Shown piece after piece: positions 12,965 to 58,000 of a stretch of 64,000 bases of DNA. Positions within the stretch are counted from its first letter, which is position 1; every line of letters starts with the position of its first letter. A model generated the notes under the pieces. The model was given only the letters and a program-made list of their open reading frames with translations, was not told the origin of the DNA and searched no databases. The stretch lies in NCBI RefSeq assembly GCF_053078305.1, contig NZ_CP166879.1. One strand, written 5' to 3'. The position numbers and the translations under genes were made by a program.

Positions 12965-13263
12965 AATGGCTCACTCAAGCTTGCTCACGATTGATTCCAG
13001 TAACAAACCGTATTGTGTAATTATTTCTATAGCAGATCGCTATATAGGCTTGTATACATCGAATAATTTGAAAATCAAAGAGATAGGTAGATTTTCACTC
13101 GAAAGTAGTATTACGTGTAAGTGAGGAGTAATTATTGTTCGGTATCAAAGGGAGACAAAAAAAGCGCCCGCAGGAGGTTTAACGCTACTTACTCCCCTTG
13201 ATGATTTGCTTATTTTTCAATGAGTAAATCAAAACAAGGGGAGCAAATAAGCACAAGTTACAA

Positions 13264-14256
13264 CTAATCGATGGACAGTTTATGGACACTTTCAGCCAGC
13301 GGATTAAAGCTGATTGCATCCTGTAAAAAGTCCGGCGAAAAATGCGCATACGTCATCGTTTGTTGAATCGTGGCATGGCCCAGGATTCGTTGTAGCGTAA
13401 CGATATTTCCGCCATTCATCATGAAATGTGTAGCGAATGTATGACGCATGACATGGGTGGCCTGCCCTTTCGGTAAGTCCGGCTTCACCTCCTGAAGGAT
13501 CTCCCGAAATCTGAGGTAATCAGCCTGGTACAACAATCCGGTTCTGCGGGTTTTAATTAACGCAAGTACCGCATCAGAAACGGGAACGGCGCGAGATTTT
13601 CCGTTCTTGGTGTTAAAGAACATCACGCGGTTACCTACAATATGTTCCCCACGTAAACCAGCTGCTTCACCCCACCTTGCCCCCGTGGAAAGACACAGAA
13701 TGGCAACACGCCGCGCATCTCCATCGAGTCGTTCAAGCAGTCGTTCAATCTCCTCATCTGAAAGAAAGGCCATCTCTGTGTTCCTGACTTTCAGCTTACG
13801 TATTCCCCGAACCGGGTTTTCGTTATGGAACACCTCACCCTCAATCAGCGAGCTGAACATTGCAGACAAGGCACACAAATCGCGGTTAATGCTGGAAGGC
13901 ATTAACCCGGCCTGTAATTTGTCGGACCGGTACCCGAGCATAAATTTTCGCGTCATCTGACTGGCACGAGGATCACCCATCTCACGGTTTATCTTTTCCA
14001 GTCTGACCCTGTAGGTATCCCCGTAATCCTGGTTACGACCATCAAGCAACCACCAGGCCTCTATCAGTTCGGATAACCGACGCTGATCTGCTGGCTTAGC
14101 CTGCCATGGCTTATCATGAAAATTCTGCAAAACATACCTTTCAAACTCCTGCGCCTTTGACTTCAGGGTAAAAATCTTACGAATCCGCTTTCCTTCCGTC
14201 CCTTGTGGCCTTACATCAACCTTATAACGTCCGTCTTTGAGTTGCTTAATCGACAT
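13264..14256 (-). CDS. int: Phage integrase, tyrosine recombinase (P2 Int-like)
   Basis: N-terminus MSIKQLKDGRYKVDVRPQGTEGKRIRK closely resembles P2 Int; C-terminal catalytic region HVMRHTFATHFMMNGGNIVTLQRILGH...TMTYAH; track ORF begins at an upstream TTG. Confidence 0.9.
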   Translation of the reverse strand: MSIKQLKDGRYKVDVRPQGTEGKRIRKIFTLKSKAQEFERYVLQNFHDKPWQAKPADQRRLSELIEAWWLLDGRNQDYGDTYRVRLEKINREMGDPRASQMTRKFMLGYRSDKLQAGLMPSSINRDLCALSAMFSSLIEGEVFHNENPVRGIRKLKVRNTEMAFLSDEEIERLLERLDGDARRVAILCLSTGARWGEAAGLRGEHIVGNRVMFFNTKNGKSRAVPVSDAVLALIKTRRTGLLYQADYLRFREILQEVKPDLPKGQATHVMRHTFATHFMMNGGNIVTLQRILGHATIQQTMTYAHFSPDFLQDAISFNPLAESVHKLSID

Positions 14257-14325
14257 GATTAGCCCCTCCAACGGATAAATTAACCAAACACTCCCTGCGG
14301 GATGAAACCCGCTCGATGTGTAACG

Positions 14326-14673
14326 TCAGCCAGCATTGCGGCCTGATCGGGATGATTTTTGGGTAACGTCGATTGAAGCCAGATCGCCCTCCGACTGAGA
14401 AGATCCATCAAGAGAGAGAGCCGGGGCAATTTGACCCCCAGCTTCAAACGTTTCATCAGTTGTTAACCAAAGTGCATATTTTTTAAAACGTAAATTTTTT
14501 GTGATCTTTAATAAGATCTCACTTCCGATTCCATCTTGCCTTCCCGTTTCGTAATACCTCTGCGTATTAACAGGAATCCCTGTAAGCTCAAAGAATTGCT
14601 TCCTTGTAAGCCTCTCACTTTTCCGGATCATCAAGATTTTTTCACCGATACTTATTGACAGTGTCGAATTCAT
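14326..14673 (-). CDS. Immunity repressor (P2 C-like)
   Basis: From MNSTLSISIGEKILMIRKSERLTRKQFFELTGIPVNTQRYYETGRQ...GQIAPAL; matches P2 C repressor pattern (EKIVLMRKSE...YYESGR...SGQIAPAL) by recall; adjacent to int. Confidence 0.75.
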   Translation of the reverse strand: MNSTLSISIGEKILMIRKSERLTRKQFFELTGIPVNTQRYYETGRQDGIGSEILLKITKNLRFKKYALWLTTDETFEAGGQIAPALSLDGSSQSEGDLASIDVTQKSSRSGRNAG

Positions 14674-14774
14674 ACCACTAAAATCCTCGCAAAAGTGTCG
14701 TAATTTCGACATTAAACAAACCAAAACAAACCTTCATAAGGTGCAATAGGCGCACCTGTGCGAGAGGATAACAA
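14674..14774. promoter_or_regulatory. Divergent lysis/lysogeny switch region between C-like repressor and Cox-like gene
   Basis: Tandem 10-bp direct repeat (t/a)aaacaaacc x2 at 14713-14732 plus palindrome ggtgcaataggcgcacc at 14740-14756; P2-type repressors bind direct repeats. Confidence 0.5.
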
Positions 14775-15299
14775 ATGCGGGACTTCATTGCCGATAAAGA
14801 GTTATCTGACACCGATCACACAACTGGAGCGGCGTACATCAACGCCGATACCAGTCAACAAGAAGCAACAGATAACAACGACGAACAAAAGCCACAGCGC
14901 ACATATAAAAAAGGGGCAACCCTGCGGCTGGATGGCCCAATAGCCGGGCTTTGCTCACTTGAAAAAGGGGCCGCCTACATCGGATTAACAAAAACAGCAT
15001 TACGCGCAGCTCTCCAGCGTAACCAGATGCCAGGGCATAAAACCCGCTCAAACCCTGAAGATGAGAATTCGGATGGTGTTTGGTGGTTTAACGTCAGAGA
15101 GTGGGACAAGCTGGCCGACGAACTCCCGGAATGTGAGCCACCAGAATGGCACAACTGGAAAAGCTACTGGACATACGACCGCCAGAAAAGAAAGTTTACC
15201 CCGGCTGATAAGGAAGATTGCCAGACCGTCAATGGAAAACGGGTTTACAAAGGCAGAAAGTCAAAGCTGGAACAGAGCCAGGATGTAAACGAACGGTGA
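14775..15299 (+). CDS. Cox-like excisionase/transcriptional regulator with long N-terminal extension (start uncertain)
   Basis: Segment GAAYIGLTKTALRAALQRNQMPG...GVWWFNVREW resembles P2 Cox HTH region by recall; divergent from repressor; 174-aa ORF is longer than P2 Cox (91 aa). Confidence 0.5.
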   Translation: MRDFIADKELSDTDHTTGAAYINADTSQQEATDNNDEQKPQRTYKKGATLRLDGPIAGLCSLEKGAAYIGLTKTALRAALQRNQMPGHKTRSNPEDENSDGVWWFNVREWDKLADELPECEPPEWHNWKSYWTYDRQKRKFTPADKEDCQTVNGKRVYKGRKSKLEQSQDVNER

Positions 15300-15305
15300 T
15301 GAACG

Positions 15306-15701
15306 ATGAGCGGCAAAAATAAGTCAGAAAAAAACACAACCGTCCTTAAGCAGTTAAGCCTCCTGAAAGAGGAACACAAGGACGCCACGATACTGATGCA
15401 TCTGGAAGGCTCACCGAAAATAACAATCACAACAACCTATAGCGAGTTACACAAAGAGCTTGAAGGATTAATTAACTTTTGTTCAAAGCTAAAAGCGAAT
15501 GAAAACATTGATGACCTGATACTTAAACCAGAAGCAGAGTTCGGGCACTTTTGCGAAAGTAGAGAAAATGGATGCATCGGAATAATGCTATACGCAACCC
15601 GCGGAATAATGATTAATCTGCCCGTTGAGCAGGCTGTGGATATATTCGGAGAAATGGCACTTAATAAAACCACTATTTACAAAAGAAAAATGCCGGAGTA
15701 A
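15306..15701 (+). CDS. Hypothetical protein in AT-rich moron (131 aa)
   Basis: ATG overlapping stop of upstream gene; local GC ~40% versus ~55% in flanking phage genes; no recognisable motif. Confidence 0.45.
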   Translation: MSGKNKSEKNTTVLKQLSLLKEEHKDATILMHLEGSPKITITTTYSELHKELEGLINFCSKLKANENIDDLILKPEAEFGHFCESRENGCIGIMLYATRGIMINLPVEQAVDIFGEMALNKTTIYKRKMPE

Positions 15702-16016: not shown

Positions 16017-16355
16017 ATGACACAGCGACGCAGCTTCCGCACTGGCGCAGAACGCCACGCAGCCCGTTTCTCAACCAGCGCATCACGCAGCAACTCGCAC
16101 TACAGCCTGCAGGAAACGCACGCCACACCTGACGGGCATCCGGTTAAACAAACCGGTAAACACACCTGGCTGATTAATGATGCCGGAATTGTCATTCACC
16201 GGGGCGCACGCAACCCGATTACCGGAAATACCTGTTACTCCCTGACTCGCGGAGATGAGCAGTTCGGGCAGGATTTCACCCTGCACGAAGCATTAAGAAC
16301 GGCAGACCGGTTAATCAGCGGTCGCAGTTTTCAGCACCCGGAACATCGCCGCTGA
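16017..16355 (+). CDS. Hypothetical phage early protein
   Basis: 112-aa ORF in early operon; no recognisable motif. Confidence 0.4.
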   Translation: MTQRRSFRTGAERHAARFSTSASRSNSHYSLQETHATPDGHPVKQTGKHTWLINDAGIVIHRGARNPITGNTCYSLTRGDEQFGQDFTLHEALRTADRLISGRSFQHPEHRR

Positions 16356-46186: not shown

Positions 46187-46206
46187 CCCTCACACAAAAG
46201 TCACAA

Positions 46207-46238
46207 AGAAAAACAAAGCCCGCAGCGTAAAAACTGCG
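46207..46238. terminator. Bidirectional rho-independent terminator (serS end / right-arm transcripts)
   Basis: Perfect hairpin aagcccgcag-cgtaaaaa-ctgcgggctt flanked by A-run and T-run. Confidence 0.65.
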
Positions 46239-46362
46239 GGCTTTTTTGTTTCAAAGATGGACGTTATCTGGACACATGAAAATAAAAAATCTTTATTTTC
46301 AATATGTTAACCACCCACTAAAACCACCCGCAGGCGCTTTTTAGATTCAGAAAAATTAGGTA

Positions 46363-55028: not shown

Positions 55029-56111
<1,083 letters not shown>

Positions 56112-56137
56112 TTTTACAAATCAGTAACAAAAGTAAA

Positions 56138-56233: not shown

Positions 56234-58000
56234 ATGAATAAATCTCGTCAAAAAGAGTTAACCCGCTGGTTAAAACAGCAAAGCGTCATCTCCCAACGTT
56301 GGCTGAATATTTCTCGTCTGCTGGGCTTTGTGAGCGGCATATTGATCATTGCCCAGGCATGGTTCATGGCGCGAATTCTGCAACATATGATTATGGAGAA
56401 TATTCCCCGTGAAGCCCTGCTGCTTCCCTTTACGTTACTGGTTCTGACCTTTGTACTGCGCGCATGGGTGGTCTGGTTACGCGAACGGGTGGGTTATCAC
56501 GCCGGGCAGCATATCCGCTTTGCCATCCGCCGTCAGGTTCTCGACCGTCTGCAACAAGCAGGGCCAGCGTGGATTCAGGGTAAACCTGCGGGGAGCTGGG
56601 CGACGCTGGTACTCGAGCAAATTGACGATATGCATGATTACTATGCACGCTACCTGCCGCAAATGGCGCTGGCAGTGTCGGTGCCGTTGCTGATTGTGGT
56701 GGCGATCTTCCCCTCTAACTGGGCTGCGGCGCTCATTCTGCTGGGCACAGCACCGCTAATTCCGTTGTTTATGGCGCTGGTTGGAATGGGGGCTGCCGAT
56801 GCTAACCGACGTAACTTTCTCGCTCTTGCTCGCTTAAGTGGGCATTTCCTCGATCGCCTGCGCGGCATGGAAACACTGCGTATTTTTGGTCGTGGTGAAG
56901 CTGAAATTGAAAGTATTCGTTCTGCTTCGGAAGATTTCCGCCAACGGACAATGGAAGTGCTACGACTGGCGTTTTTATCCTCCGGCATTCTCGAATTTTT
57001 TACCTCGCTGTCAATTGCTCTGGTGGCAGTCTACTTTGGTTTTTCCTATCTCGGCGAGCTGGATTTTGGTCACTACGATACTGGCGTGACGCTGGCTGCG
57101 GGTTTTCTGGCCCTGATCCTTGCGCCAGAGTTTTTCCAGCCATTACGCGATCTCGGTACGTTTTATCATGCTAAAGCCCAGGCTGTTGGTGCAGCTGACA
57201 GTCTGAAAACGTTTATGGAAACCCCGCTCGCCCATCCGCAGCGCGGTGAGACGGAATTAGCATCAACCGATCCGCTGACCATTGAGGCCGAGGATCTGTT
57301 TATCACGTCGCCGGAAGGTAAAACGCTGGCCGGACCGCTGAACTTTACTTTGCCAGCAGGCCAACGTGCAGTGTTGGTTGGTCGCAGCGGTTCAGGTAAA
57401 AGCTCACTGCTGAACGCGCTTTCTGGTTTTCTCTCATATCAGGGATCATTACGAATCAACGGGATAGAATTACGCGATTTATCACCAGAATCATGGCGTA
57501 AACATCTCTCCTGGGTTGGGCAAAACCCACAATTACCGGCAGCAACATTACGGGATAACGTACTACTGGCGCGACCTGATGCCAGCGAACAAGAATTACA
57601 AGCAGCGCTGGATAACGCCTGGGTCAGCGAGTTTCTACCGCTCCTGCCACAAGGCGTTGATACGCCTGTTGGCGACCAGGCTGCCCGCCTTTCCGTGGGG
57701 CAGGCGCAGCGCGTGGCGGTGGCCCGTGCGTTACTAAATCCCTGTTCGCTATTACTGTTGGATGAACCCGCTGCCAGCCTTGATGCTCACAGTGAACAGC
57801 GCGTAATGGAGGCGCTGAATGCCGCCTCTCTGCGCCAGACAACGTTAATGGTCACCCACCAGTTAGAAGATCTTGCTGACTGGGATGTCATTTGGGTTAT
57901 GCAGGATGGCCGGATTATTGAGCAAGGACGTTACGCGGAATTAAGTGTGGCTGGTGGCCCATTCGCCACATTACTGGCCCATCGTCAGGAGGAGATTTAA
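56234..58000 (+). CDS. cydD: Cysteine/glutathione ABC exporter subunit CydD
   Basis: 588 aa; TMD plus NBD with Walker A GRSGSGKSS and signature LSVGQAQR. Confidence 0.92.
   Translation: MNKSRQKELTRWLKQQSVISQRWLNISRLLGFVSGILIIAQAWFMARILQHMIMENIPREALLLPFTLLVLTFVLRAWVVWLRERVGYHAGQHIRFAIRRQVLDRLQQAGPAWIQGKPAGSWATLVLEQIDDMHDYYARYLPQMALAVSVPLLIVVAIFPSNWAAALILLGTAPLIPLFMALVGMGAADANRRNFLALARLSGHFLDRLRGMETLRIFGRGEAEIESIRSASEDFRQRTMEVLRLAFLSSGILEFFTSLSIALVAVYFGFSYLGELDFGHYDTGVTLAAGFLALILAPEFFQPLRDLGTFYHAKAQAVGAADSLKTFMETPLAHPQRGETELASTDPLTIEAEDLFITSPEGKTLAGPLNFTLPAGQRAVLVGRSGSGKSSLLNALSGFLSYQGSLRINGIELRDLSPESWRKHLSWVGQNPQLPAATLRDNVLLARPDASEQELQAALDNAWVSEFLPLLPQGVDTPVGDQAARLSVGQAQRVAVARALLNPCSLLLLDEPAASLDAHSEQRVMEALNAASLRQTTLMVTHQLEDLADWDVIWVMQDGRIIEQGRYAELSVAGGPFATLLAHRQEEI

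Follow-up and report, generated by a model that had tools for sequence, protein, structure and literature searches.

Repressors of the P2 C type recognize direct-repeat half-sites (PMC1904268, PMC2995052), and the Cox protein of P2 binds 9-bp cox-boxes (consensus TTAAA(G/C)NC(A/C)) whose starts are 10–11 bp apart, with six or more boxes per target, and which lie over the −10 and −35 elements of the repressor promoter Pc (PMC3936717). In phage 186, Apl uses direct repeats 10–11 bp apart, located between and over the face-to-face promoters pR and pL and in a similar array at the attachment (att) site; at least three adjacent sites are needed (PMC7498355). We analysed the 101-bp region at positions 14674–14774 of a 64 000-nucleotide stretch of DNA (NCBI RefSeq assembly GCF_053078305.1, contig NZ_CP166879.1; hereafter 'the window'), which is E. 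coli chromosome (99.4% identity to strain 04-00955). This region separates divergent genes for a C repressor and a Cox-like protein, and the locus is a P2-type C/Cox lysis/lysogeny switch of a P2-like prophage, a member of a known family. A preliminary description had recognized the gene pair, which PDB and Pfam matches and a predicted fold confirm, and had rightly stated that P2-type C repressors read direct repeats; it had further proposed that a tandem 10-bp repeat and a palindrome in the spacer are the C half-sites that define immunity. The comparisons given below point elsewhere: two AGTGTCG sequences to the left of the repeat, together with an inverted arm, are most likely the immunity-specific C operator, as predicted from covariation with C, and the tandem repeat would belong to an array of Cox sites.

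The nearest mapped relative in operator geometry is phage WPhi (AJ245959; Liu and Haggard-Ljungquist). Both switches have divergent C and cox genes beside int, an early promoter (Pe) whose −35 element TTGACA abuts or overlaps the start of C, identical direct half-sites 34 bp apart that flank the Pe −10 (TATTGGTGAC twice, 10 bp, in WPhi; PMC1904268) and direct repeats between the second half-site, O2, and cox. They differ in that the two C proteins are 42% identical, the half-site of the window is shorter (AGTGTCG, 7 bp), its O2 has an inverted partner that WPhi is without, the C–cox spacer is 101 bp long instead of 152 bp, the Cox-like protein has 174 residues instead of 90, and the attachment site is a different one. 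With P2 (NC_001895) the window shares the gene order, the face-to-face logic, a homologous C (41% identity), the core fold of Cox (4LHF) and half-sites O1 and O2 flanking the Pe −10, whereas the P2 half-sites are 8 bp long, 22 bp apart and non-palindromic. At the homologous place between O2 and cox, P2 has the cox-boxes TAAAAGGCA, TATAAGACA and TTAAACGCA, which fit the published consensus, start at intervals of 10 and 9 bp and are followed by TTCATGAGG; the counterpart in the window is TTAAACAAA (one mismatch to the P2 consensus), a second box and then TTCATAAGG. The box consensus of the window is ACAA-R-S-S, in contrast to that of P2, the stretch from the TTCAT block to the cox start is ~20 bp, or two boxes, longer in the window, and its Cox has extensions.

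The nearest described prophage relative is PhiECO5 of strain UTI89, the tentative P2-like immunity class IX (Nilsson et al. 2011, PMC3448106). It belongs to the same prophage family as that of the window, with the integration site beside dmsA, the long Cox, the box array and the conserved C-terminal tail of C in common; unlike the window, it carries what we call a type C repressor (50% identical) with TTCACCA and CTTCACC-N4-GGTGAAG sites, and the type A allele of the window is much rarer. Apl of phage 186, an excision-directionality factor, resembles the proposed role of the Cox-like protein and is likewise the product of the first lytic gene, but Apl differs in sequence and has seven sites of 6 bp, and the 186 repressor is of the CI type; the window has four recognisable boxes and an att array that is only suggestive. 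Departures from the textbook P2 switch are modest: a long Cox with extensions and an O2 that is a dyad.

Promoter prediction on both strands, one of the checks proposed in the preliminary description, was carried out as a consensus scan. Pe, with 11 of 12 consensus positions, was the sole strong promoter-like site in 14200–15400 (coordinates of this and other features are collected in Table 1). It is directed towards cox, its −35 element falls within codons 5–6 of C, and in P2 and WPhi the annotated Pe stands in the same position relative to the C start; all 27 distinct relatives described below have TTGACA without change. Transcription from Pe would start at ~14691, which places the tandem repeat at about +22 to +41, in the 84-nt cox leader and outside the Pe core.

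The tandem repeat itself was confirmed by direct reading: 14713–14722 is TAAACAAACC and 14723–14732 is AAAACAAACC, i.e. a perfect 9-mer, AAACAAACC, occurs twice head to tail with a period of 10 (14714–14732). When the 101-bp intergenic region was shuffled 5000 times with its dinucleotides preserved, a perfect run of at least 9 at offsets 8–12 arose in 11 cases; the repeat is therefore beyond chance. Its A-rich simple sequence and a copy number of 2 or 3 among relatives could have suggested functionless low complexity or replication slippage; given the shuffles, and given that the repeat is kept in 27 distinct sequences despite flanks diverged to ~50%, such an origin is extremely improbable. 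Allowing one mismatch at most, AAACAAACC is not enriched in the window (24 sites versus 18.6 expected). One further copy stands 12 bp from AAACACACC at 16146–16166, within a DUF4761-family open reading frame of the early operon, and this pair is probably due to chance.

The palindrome (GGTGCAATAGGCGCACC) is present where the preliminary description had placed it, but it pairs in the outer 5 bp only, around a 7-nt spacer, and inverted repeats with arms of at least 5 bp arose in 316 of 1000 shuffles (32%), i.e. at chance level. Among 14 distinct relatives a 4-bp GC stem is kept, and no compensatory changes were found in the right half of the region (RNAalifold). We regard it as part of boxes 3–4 of the array discussed below and not as an independent element.

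The distribution of both repeats was then compared among 33 IMG/VR loci encoding the long Cox (70–100% identity; 27 distinct sequences). These loci comprise three types of C repressor, 50–53% identical, and have the same right half of the switch: (i) type A (the window, L014 and L022; also strain 04-00955), with the AGTGTCG repeat and TGTCG-N6-CGACA at the second copy, (ii) type B (L002 and others, for example vB_EcoM-569R5; C 53% identical to that of the window), with a AAGATAACC repeat and AAGATAACC-N4-GGTTATCTT at the second copy and (iii) type C (L015, PhiECO5 of UTI89 and others; C 50% identical to that of the window), with a TTCACCA repeat and CTTCACC-N4-GGTGAAG at the second copy. The recognition helix differs among the three (VNTQRYY, LATIRNY and VGTIGNY), and the repeat that occupies the two corresponding positions is specific to the type, its second copy being 32–34 bp downstream of the first. 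An anchored search (7 offsets × 11 spacings) detected a repeat of 6–14 bp in 27 of 27 distinct sequences, the chance of a 7-bp repeat in such a search being ~0.005 per single sequence. In the window, the two AGTGTCG copies are direct, 34 bp apart, flank the Pe −10 and lie ~20–50 bp to the left of the tandem repeat, which is itself present in all three immunity types.

A natural cassette swap separates the two sets of sites further. The Cox encoded by L015 is 100% identical to that of the window, yet both the repressor and the repeats of this locus are of type C; its DNA is 100% identical to the window from int to ~14420 and again from ~14714, and ~50% identical between these points. The same pattern of identical flanks and a divergent block is seen between the window and type B, and L022 is the converse case, with a type A cassette beside a right half that is of type B. 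The right border of the cassette is the first tandem box. At the other side, the last ~35 residues of C (14326–14430; GQIAPALSLDGS.QSEGD...TQKS.RSGRN.G) are common to all three immunity types, as judged against L002, L015 and L047, unlike the DNA-binding half, which is only ~50% identical between types. This C-terminal tail, disordered and dispensable in P2 C (PMC2995052), appears to have served as the left homology arm in cassette exchange. We suggest that in prophages inserted between dmsA and serS, recombination between the C tail and the Cox-box array may swap the cassette. The type A cassette was found in 3 of 5426 complete E. coli genomes, and we found no named immunity class for this rare, uncharacterised allele.

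Because the AGTGTCG pair co-varies with the type of C and is exchanged with the cassette, it is this pair with its inverted arm, not the tandem repeat, that points to the C operator. It is very improbable that immunity is set by half-sites consisting of the tandem AAACAAACC repeats, alone or together with the palindrome, and the comparative data largely refute this view. The tandem repeats are genuine direct repeats in the C–cox spacer, and direct repeats are what P2-type C repressors read; however, they remain near-unchanged with three C proteins that are 50–53% identical and differ in the recognition helix, and therefore cannot set immunity. They are also outside the swapped cassette and past the predicted Pe start instead of flanking the Pe −10 or −35, their 10-bp spacing contrasts with 22, 26 and 34 bp in mapped C operators, and the better, C-covarying candidate is close by to the left. 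Comparing operators across immunity types, as the preliminary description had advised, thus went against its own candidate.

The second AGTGTCG copy is part of the dyad TGTCG-TAATTT-CGACA (14696–14711), and no other perfect TGTCG-N6-CGACA occurs in the 64-kb window. Since this dyad would occupy about +5 to +21 of the Pe transcript, and since its stem is conserved among relatives with a variable loop and compensatory stem changes, it could be imagined to act in RNA, as a hairpin in the C leader or at the 5′ end of the early transcript. In type B, for example, the O2 arms show paired changes (AACC/GGTT to ACTC/GAGT) around a freely varying centre. Three observations are left unexplained by a hairpin, however: in every immunity type the Pe spacer holds a further copy of the left arm (O1), the arms differ in sequence according to the type of repressor, and related phages have dyads at both +16 and +49 from the −35. 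In addition, a search of Rfam with 14000–15600 (E up to 1) gave no match. We consider an RNA role in place of a repressor site quite improbable.

To the right of O2, between it and cox, the tandem repeat continues as an array. When 10-nt columns were counted back from the cox ATG, four boxes were found in register in the 27 distinct sequences, with a core of A (106/108), C (88/108), A (104/108) and A (106/108) followed by R, S and S. Typical relatives have TTTACAAGCC, AAAACAAACC, ATCACAAGGC and GCGACAAGCG, and the window has TAAACAAACC, AAAACAAACC, TTCATAAGGT and GCAATAGGCG; four is below the six or more reported for P2 targets. A weight matrix built from the relatives only was used to scan 127 928 positions on both strands for four boxes with a 10–11-bp phase. 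The array at 14716 ranked first (24.1 bits; next unrelated site, 18.2 bits). Second-best scores in host DNA (56105–56130 and 56340–56365) were in or beside an A-rich intergenic stretch and were taken as the background of a weak motif. As to the P2 consensus, the window has TTAAACAAA at 14712 with one mismatch, which is not significant alone since such sites occur at 0.28 per 100 bp.

The boxes track Cox and not the repressor, being conserved with Cox across the three C types. Within the family the Cox winged helix is too conserved for Cox/box covariation to be followed, except that the boxes diverge most in L044/45, whose Cox is also the most divergent (70%). The modular pattern is seen again in an independent clade, in which PhiR44_2, Chuche and Shae have a near-identical 95-residue Cox, shared ATAAGCC boxes with a 10-bp phase and three different dyad operators. 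In L035 (IMG/VR UViG_2541047944_000005) there are three tandem ACAAACC boxes, an expansion by exactly one 10-bp unit that keeps the helical phase.

The att arms, where an excision-directionality factor would also act, were examined with the same matrix. In the int-proximal (P′) arm, an array with steps of 11, 10 and 10 starting from 13213 on the minus strand ranked 7 of 127 928, and the same arm gave rank 27 on the plus strand; a three-box array at 46192 in the serS-side (P) arm ranked 17 of ~128 000. All of these are weak motifs. A rank of 7 or better within the ~200 positions specified beforehand has a chance of ~0.01, and the array is suggestive of Cox sites. ACAAACC at 13003 and its complement at 13047 were rejected as att-arm boxes, both being in host DNA upstream of dmsA (junction at 13174). 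Three ACAAA(A/G) repeats with 9–10-bp steps (46194–46241) were also noticed beside a strong bidirectional terminator hairpin, GCCCGCAG-N8-CTGCGGGC with A/T runs; the third belongs to the A-tract of this terminator near the right prophage end, and the meaning of the set is ambiguous.

The position of Pc bears on another explanation of the boxes. Two candidate models were considered. Model (i) matches 8 of 12 consensus positions, which is under the scan threshold, and is collinear with the annotated Pc of P2 (TTATGA-N17-TTTAAT versus TCATGA-N16-TATAAT in P2, both on the minus strand). In model (ii) the −10 is TGTGATGGT in most relatives but matches the consensus poorly in the window; its distance to the Pe −10 is 51 bp, as compared with 55 bp in P2. 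The box array overlaps the Pc core under either model. The L035 variant was tried as an exclusion of model (i) and dropped, since the inserted unit restores a similar −35 (TTGTTT for TTGTGA); this variant does not discriminate between the models. With the boxes located where Pc must be and used by both models, with A/C-rich RNA that would be unstructured, and with boxes 3–4 weak in the window, conservation could in principle reflect only promoter or leader function (Pc elements, the start of the C mRNA or a translational enhancer in the cox leader) with no dedicated protein. We hold this to be unlikely: four boxes exactly in register at 10 bp would not be expected from it, nor would the 10-bp unit expansion of L035, a related phased array in the att arm, or the resemblance to the cox-box and Apl arrays that have been mapped in the corresponding location (PMC3936717, PMC7498355).

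The protein that would bind these boxes is the product of the first lytic gene. The Cox-like protein matches Pfam Phage_Cox with E = 3e-6 (positions 11–86 of the 87 in the profile) and aligns collinearly with the Cox proteins of P2, WPhi and P88. Its core (approximately residues 55–135) lies between an acidic N-terminal and a basic C-terminal extension. For residues 59–120 of the AlphaFold model (predicted local distance difference test, pLDDT, ~80) the top PDB match was P2 Cox, 4LHF (probability 1.00, target-normalised template modelling score 0.70), and phage excisionases and putative excisionases were also among the PDB fold matches. The Pfam and fold matches settle, at the level of profile and modelled structure, that it is a Cox-family winged-helix protein. 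No match was found in NCBIfam, and hhalign of the Cox-like against short Cox proteins was weak (E = 0.018). The extensions, residues 1–55 (14775–14940; acidic, poorly conserved) and residues 136–174 (15180–15299; basic, KRKF...GKRVY.GR.SKL), are modelled at low confidence, and P2 and WPhi Cox are without both. The Shine-Dalgarno sequence of the gene is part of AGAGGATAAC, which is near-invariant among relatives.

The repressor C (WP_001089369) matches the PDB entries of P2 C protein (2XCJ/2L49; E = 4.6e-18, residues 6–94 covered, phmmer) and phrog_147 (E = 3e-27), and its start at 14673 is the same as in the RefSeq annotation of the near-identical strain 04-00955, which also has C and cox divergent and adjoining a P2-type integrase, in agreement with the open reading frames and Pfam matches of the window.

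Taken together, we consider it fairly probable, on comparative grounds, that C binds the AGTGTCG sites O1 and O2 and that the tandem repeat represents boxes 1–2 of a Cox array over Pc. Several observations weigh against this reading. The scan that revealed Pe gave no minus-strand site above its threshold, and the two weak models of Pc disagree with each other. Boxes 3 and 4 of the window (ATAAGGT and ATAGGCG) are degenerate, each scoring below 6 bits, a simple motif count in the att arms is unremarkable and the att arrays are weak. On the side of the protein, the Phage_Cox score is 27.4 bits, 0.1 bit short of the cut-off of 27.5, the protein is twice the length of P2 Cox and a search of its profile against PDB sequences gave no match. 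As to the operator, AGTGTCG occurs in the window at chance frequency (6 versus 7.15 expected), its occurrence twice is by itself weakly significant (136 of 5000 shuffles) and the case for it rests on covariation. Types A, B and C would be heteroimmune, a deduction from the 50–53% identity of the repressors and from the differing candidate operators.

The anatomy of the region, its patterns of conservation and covariation, the phasing statistics and the homology of both proteins are direct results; from them we infer all the binding events, the transcription starts and the position of Pc in the following scheme. In a lysogen, C dimers on O1 (between the Pe −35 and −10) and O2 (just after the Pe start), 34 bp or about three helical turns apart, would prevent RNA polymerase from using Pe, and the prophage would stay silent. 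In P2, C forms a symmetric dimer that reaches across two consecutive major grooves (PMC2995052); at the O2 dyad, with arm centres 11 bp apart, both recognition helices of such a dimer could contact consecutive major grooves. Under model (i), O2 and its inverted arm would lie against or over the start of Pc, allowing negative autoregulation as in P2. Upon derepression or infection, Pe would express the Cox-like protein as the first product of its operon; this protein might polymerise cooperatively on the phased boxes over the weak Pc, so that C is silenced and the phage committed to lytic development, and might also act at att as the excision-directionality factor, a dual role like that of P2 Cox and 186 Apl.

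This scheme provides a testable base-level map (repressor sites, Cox sites and module borders) of an uncharacterised immunity type, in a prophage family that includes those of UTI89 and of ST131 strains and occurs in ~6% of complete E. coli genomes. Prophages that are identical but for the cassette are natural swaps, which separate the two sets of sites without bench work. A lesson for annotation is that tandem repeats with a 10-bp phase beside cox or apl are to be read as sites of the excision-directionality factor, not as repressor operators.

Dyads were also observed outside the family. In phiT5282H, SEN5, PhiR44_2, Chuche, Shae and P88 (loci L007, L009, L010, L011, L012 and L013), perfect dyads (5–7-bp arms, 2–6-bp centre) have their centres near +16, near +49 or at both places, counted from the Pe −35; P2 and WPhi have none. 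It is quite possible, though we put this forward tentatively and would not call it probable, that the clade of long-form P2-type C repressors (106–122 residues; this prophage family, phiT5282H, SEN4/5, PhiR44_2, Chuche, Shae and P88) uses dyad operators with 5–9-bp arms at ~+16/+49, and that immunity is swapped as a ~280-bp cassette with the tandem repeat as the right crossover. The dyads suggest an exception to the view that all P2-like C repressors read non-palindromic direct repeats; they also suggest that operators of this kind are widespread in the family of P2-type C repressors, which has a bearing on the way in which direct repeats are read by a symmetric C dimer.

Table 1. Features of the switch region and of the adjoining prophage end (positions in the window)
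Feature	Position	Strand	Details
Candidate second Cox-box array, int-proximal att (P′) arm	13176–13213	minus	ATAAGCA, ATCAAGG, GTAAGTA, TTAAACC; steps 11, 10, 10
P2-type tyrosine integrase	13264–14256	minus	Pfam Int_N and Phage_integrase; RefSeq annotation of near-identical 04-00955
P2-type immunity repressor C, 115 residues, immunity type A	14326–14673	minus	Open reading frame; PDB and phrog matches
Exchangeable immunity cassette (~280 bp)	14430–14713, borders approximate		N-terminal DNA-binding part of C, Pe and O1/O2
Early promoter Pe (predicted)	14655–14684	plus	−35 TTGACA 14655–14660, 18-bp spacer, −10 TAAAAT 14679–14684
Candidate C half-site O1	14660–14666		AGTGTCG; in Pe spacer beside −35; overlaps C codons 3–5
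Candidate C operator O2	14694–14712		AGTGTCG 14694–14700 and inverted arm CGACA 14707–14711
Candidate Pc, model (i)	14739–14711	minus	−35 TTATGA 14739–14734, 17-bp spacer = boxes 1–2, −10 TTTAAT 14716–14711
Tandem repeat (T/A)AAACAAACC twice, boxes 1–2	14713–14732	plus	Cores ACAAACC 14716–14722 and 14726–14732
Four-box array, exact 10-bp phase, candidate cox-boxes	14716–14752	plus	ACAAACC, ACAAACC, ATAAGGT, ATAGGCG
Candidate Pc, model (ii)	14760–14730	minus	−35 CAGGTG 14760–14755, N17, −10 GAAGGT 14735–14730
Palindrome GGTGCAATAGGCGCACC	14740–14756		GGTGC-N7-GCACC; on boxes 3–4; not an independent element
Shine-Dalgarno sequence of Cox-like gene	14762–14768	plus	GAGAGGA; read in the sequence
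Cox-like gene, 174 residues	14775–15299	plus	Pfam Phage_Cox; collinear alignment; fold match

The switch belongs to a P2-like prophage of ~33 kb (Peduoviridae, P88/Xuanwuvirus-like) located between dmsA and serS, and related prophages occupy the same site in ~350 of the 5426 complete E. coli genomes. No exact repeats of at least 12 bp that could represent the att core were found; comparison of the prophage with an empty site gave a common core, CCCGCAGG, at 13167–13174 and 46327–46334. The empty attB reads AAAAAAAGCGCCCGCAGGCGCTTTTT and is the serS transcription terminator hairpin, insertion having taken place in its loop/stem. Since a hybrid hairpin is kept at each prophage junction, serS probably retains a terminator-like end after insertion. 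Finally, TGGAC(A) direct-repeat pairs 11 bp apart were observed in both att arms, at 13272–13277/13283–13288 (3′ end of int) and at 46258–46262/46269–46273, and these fit the P2-type integrase arm-site consensus tgTGGaCa (PMC3448106).

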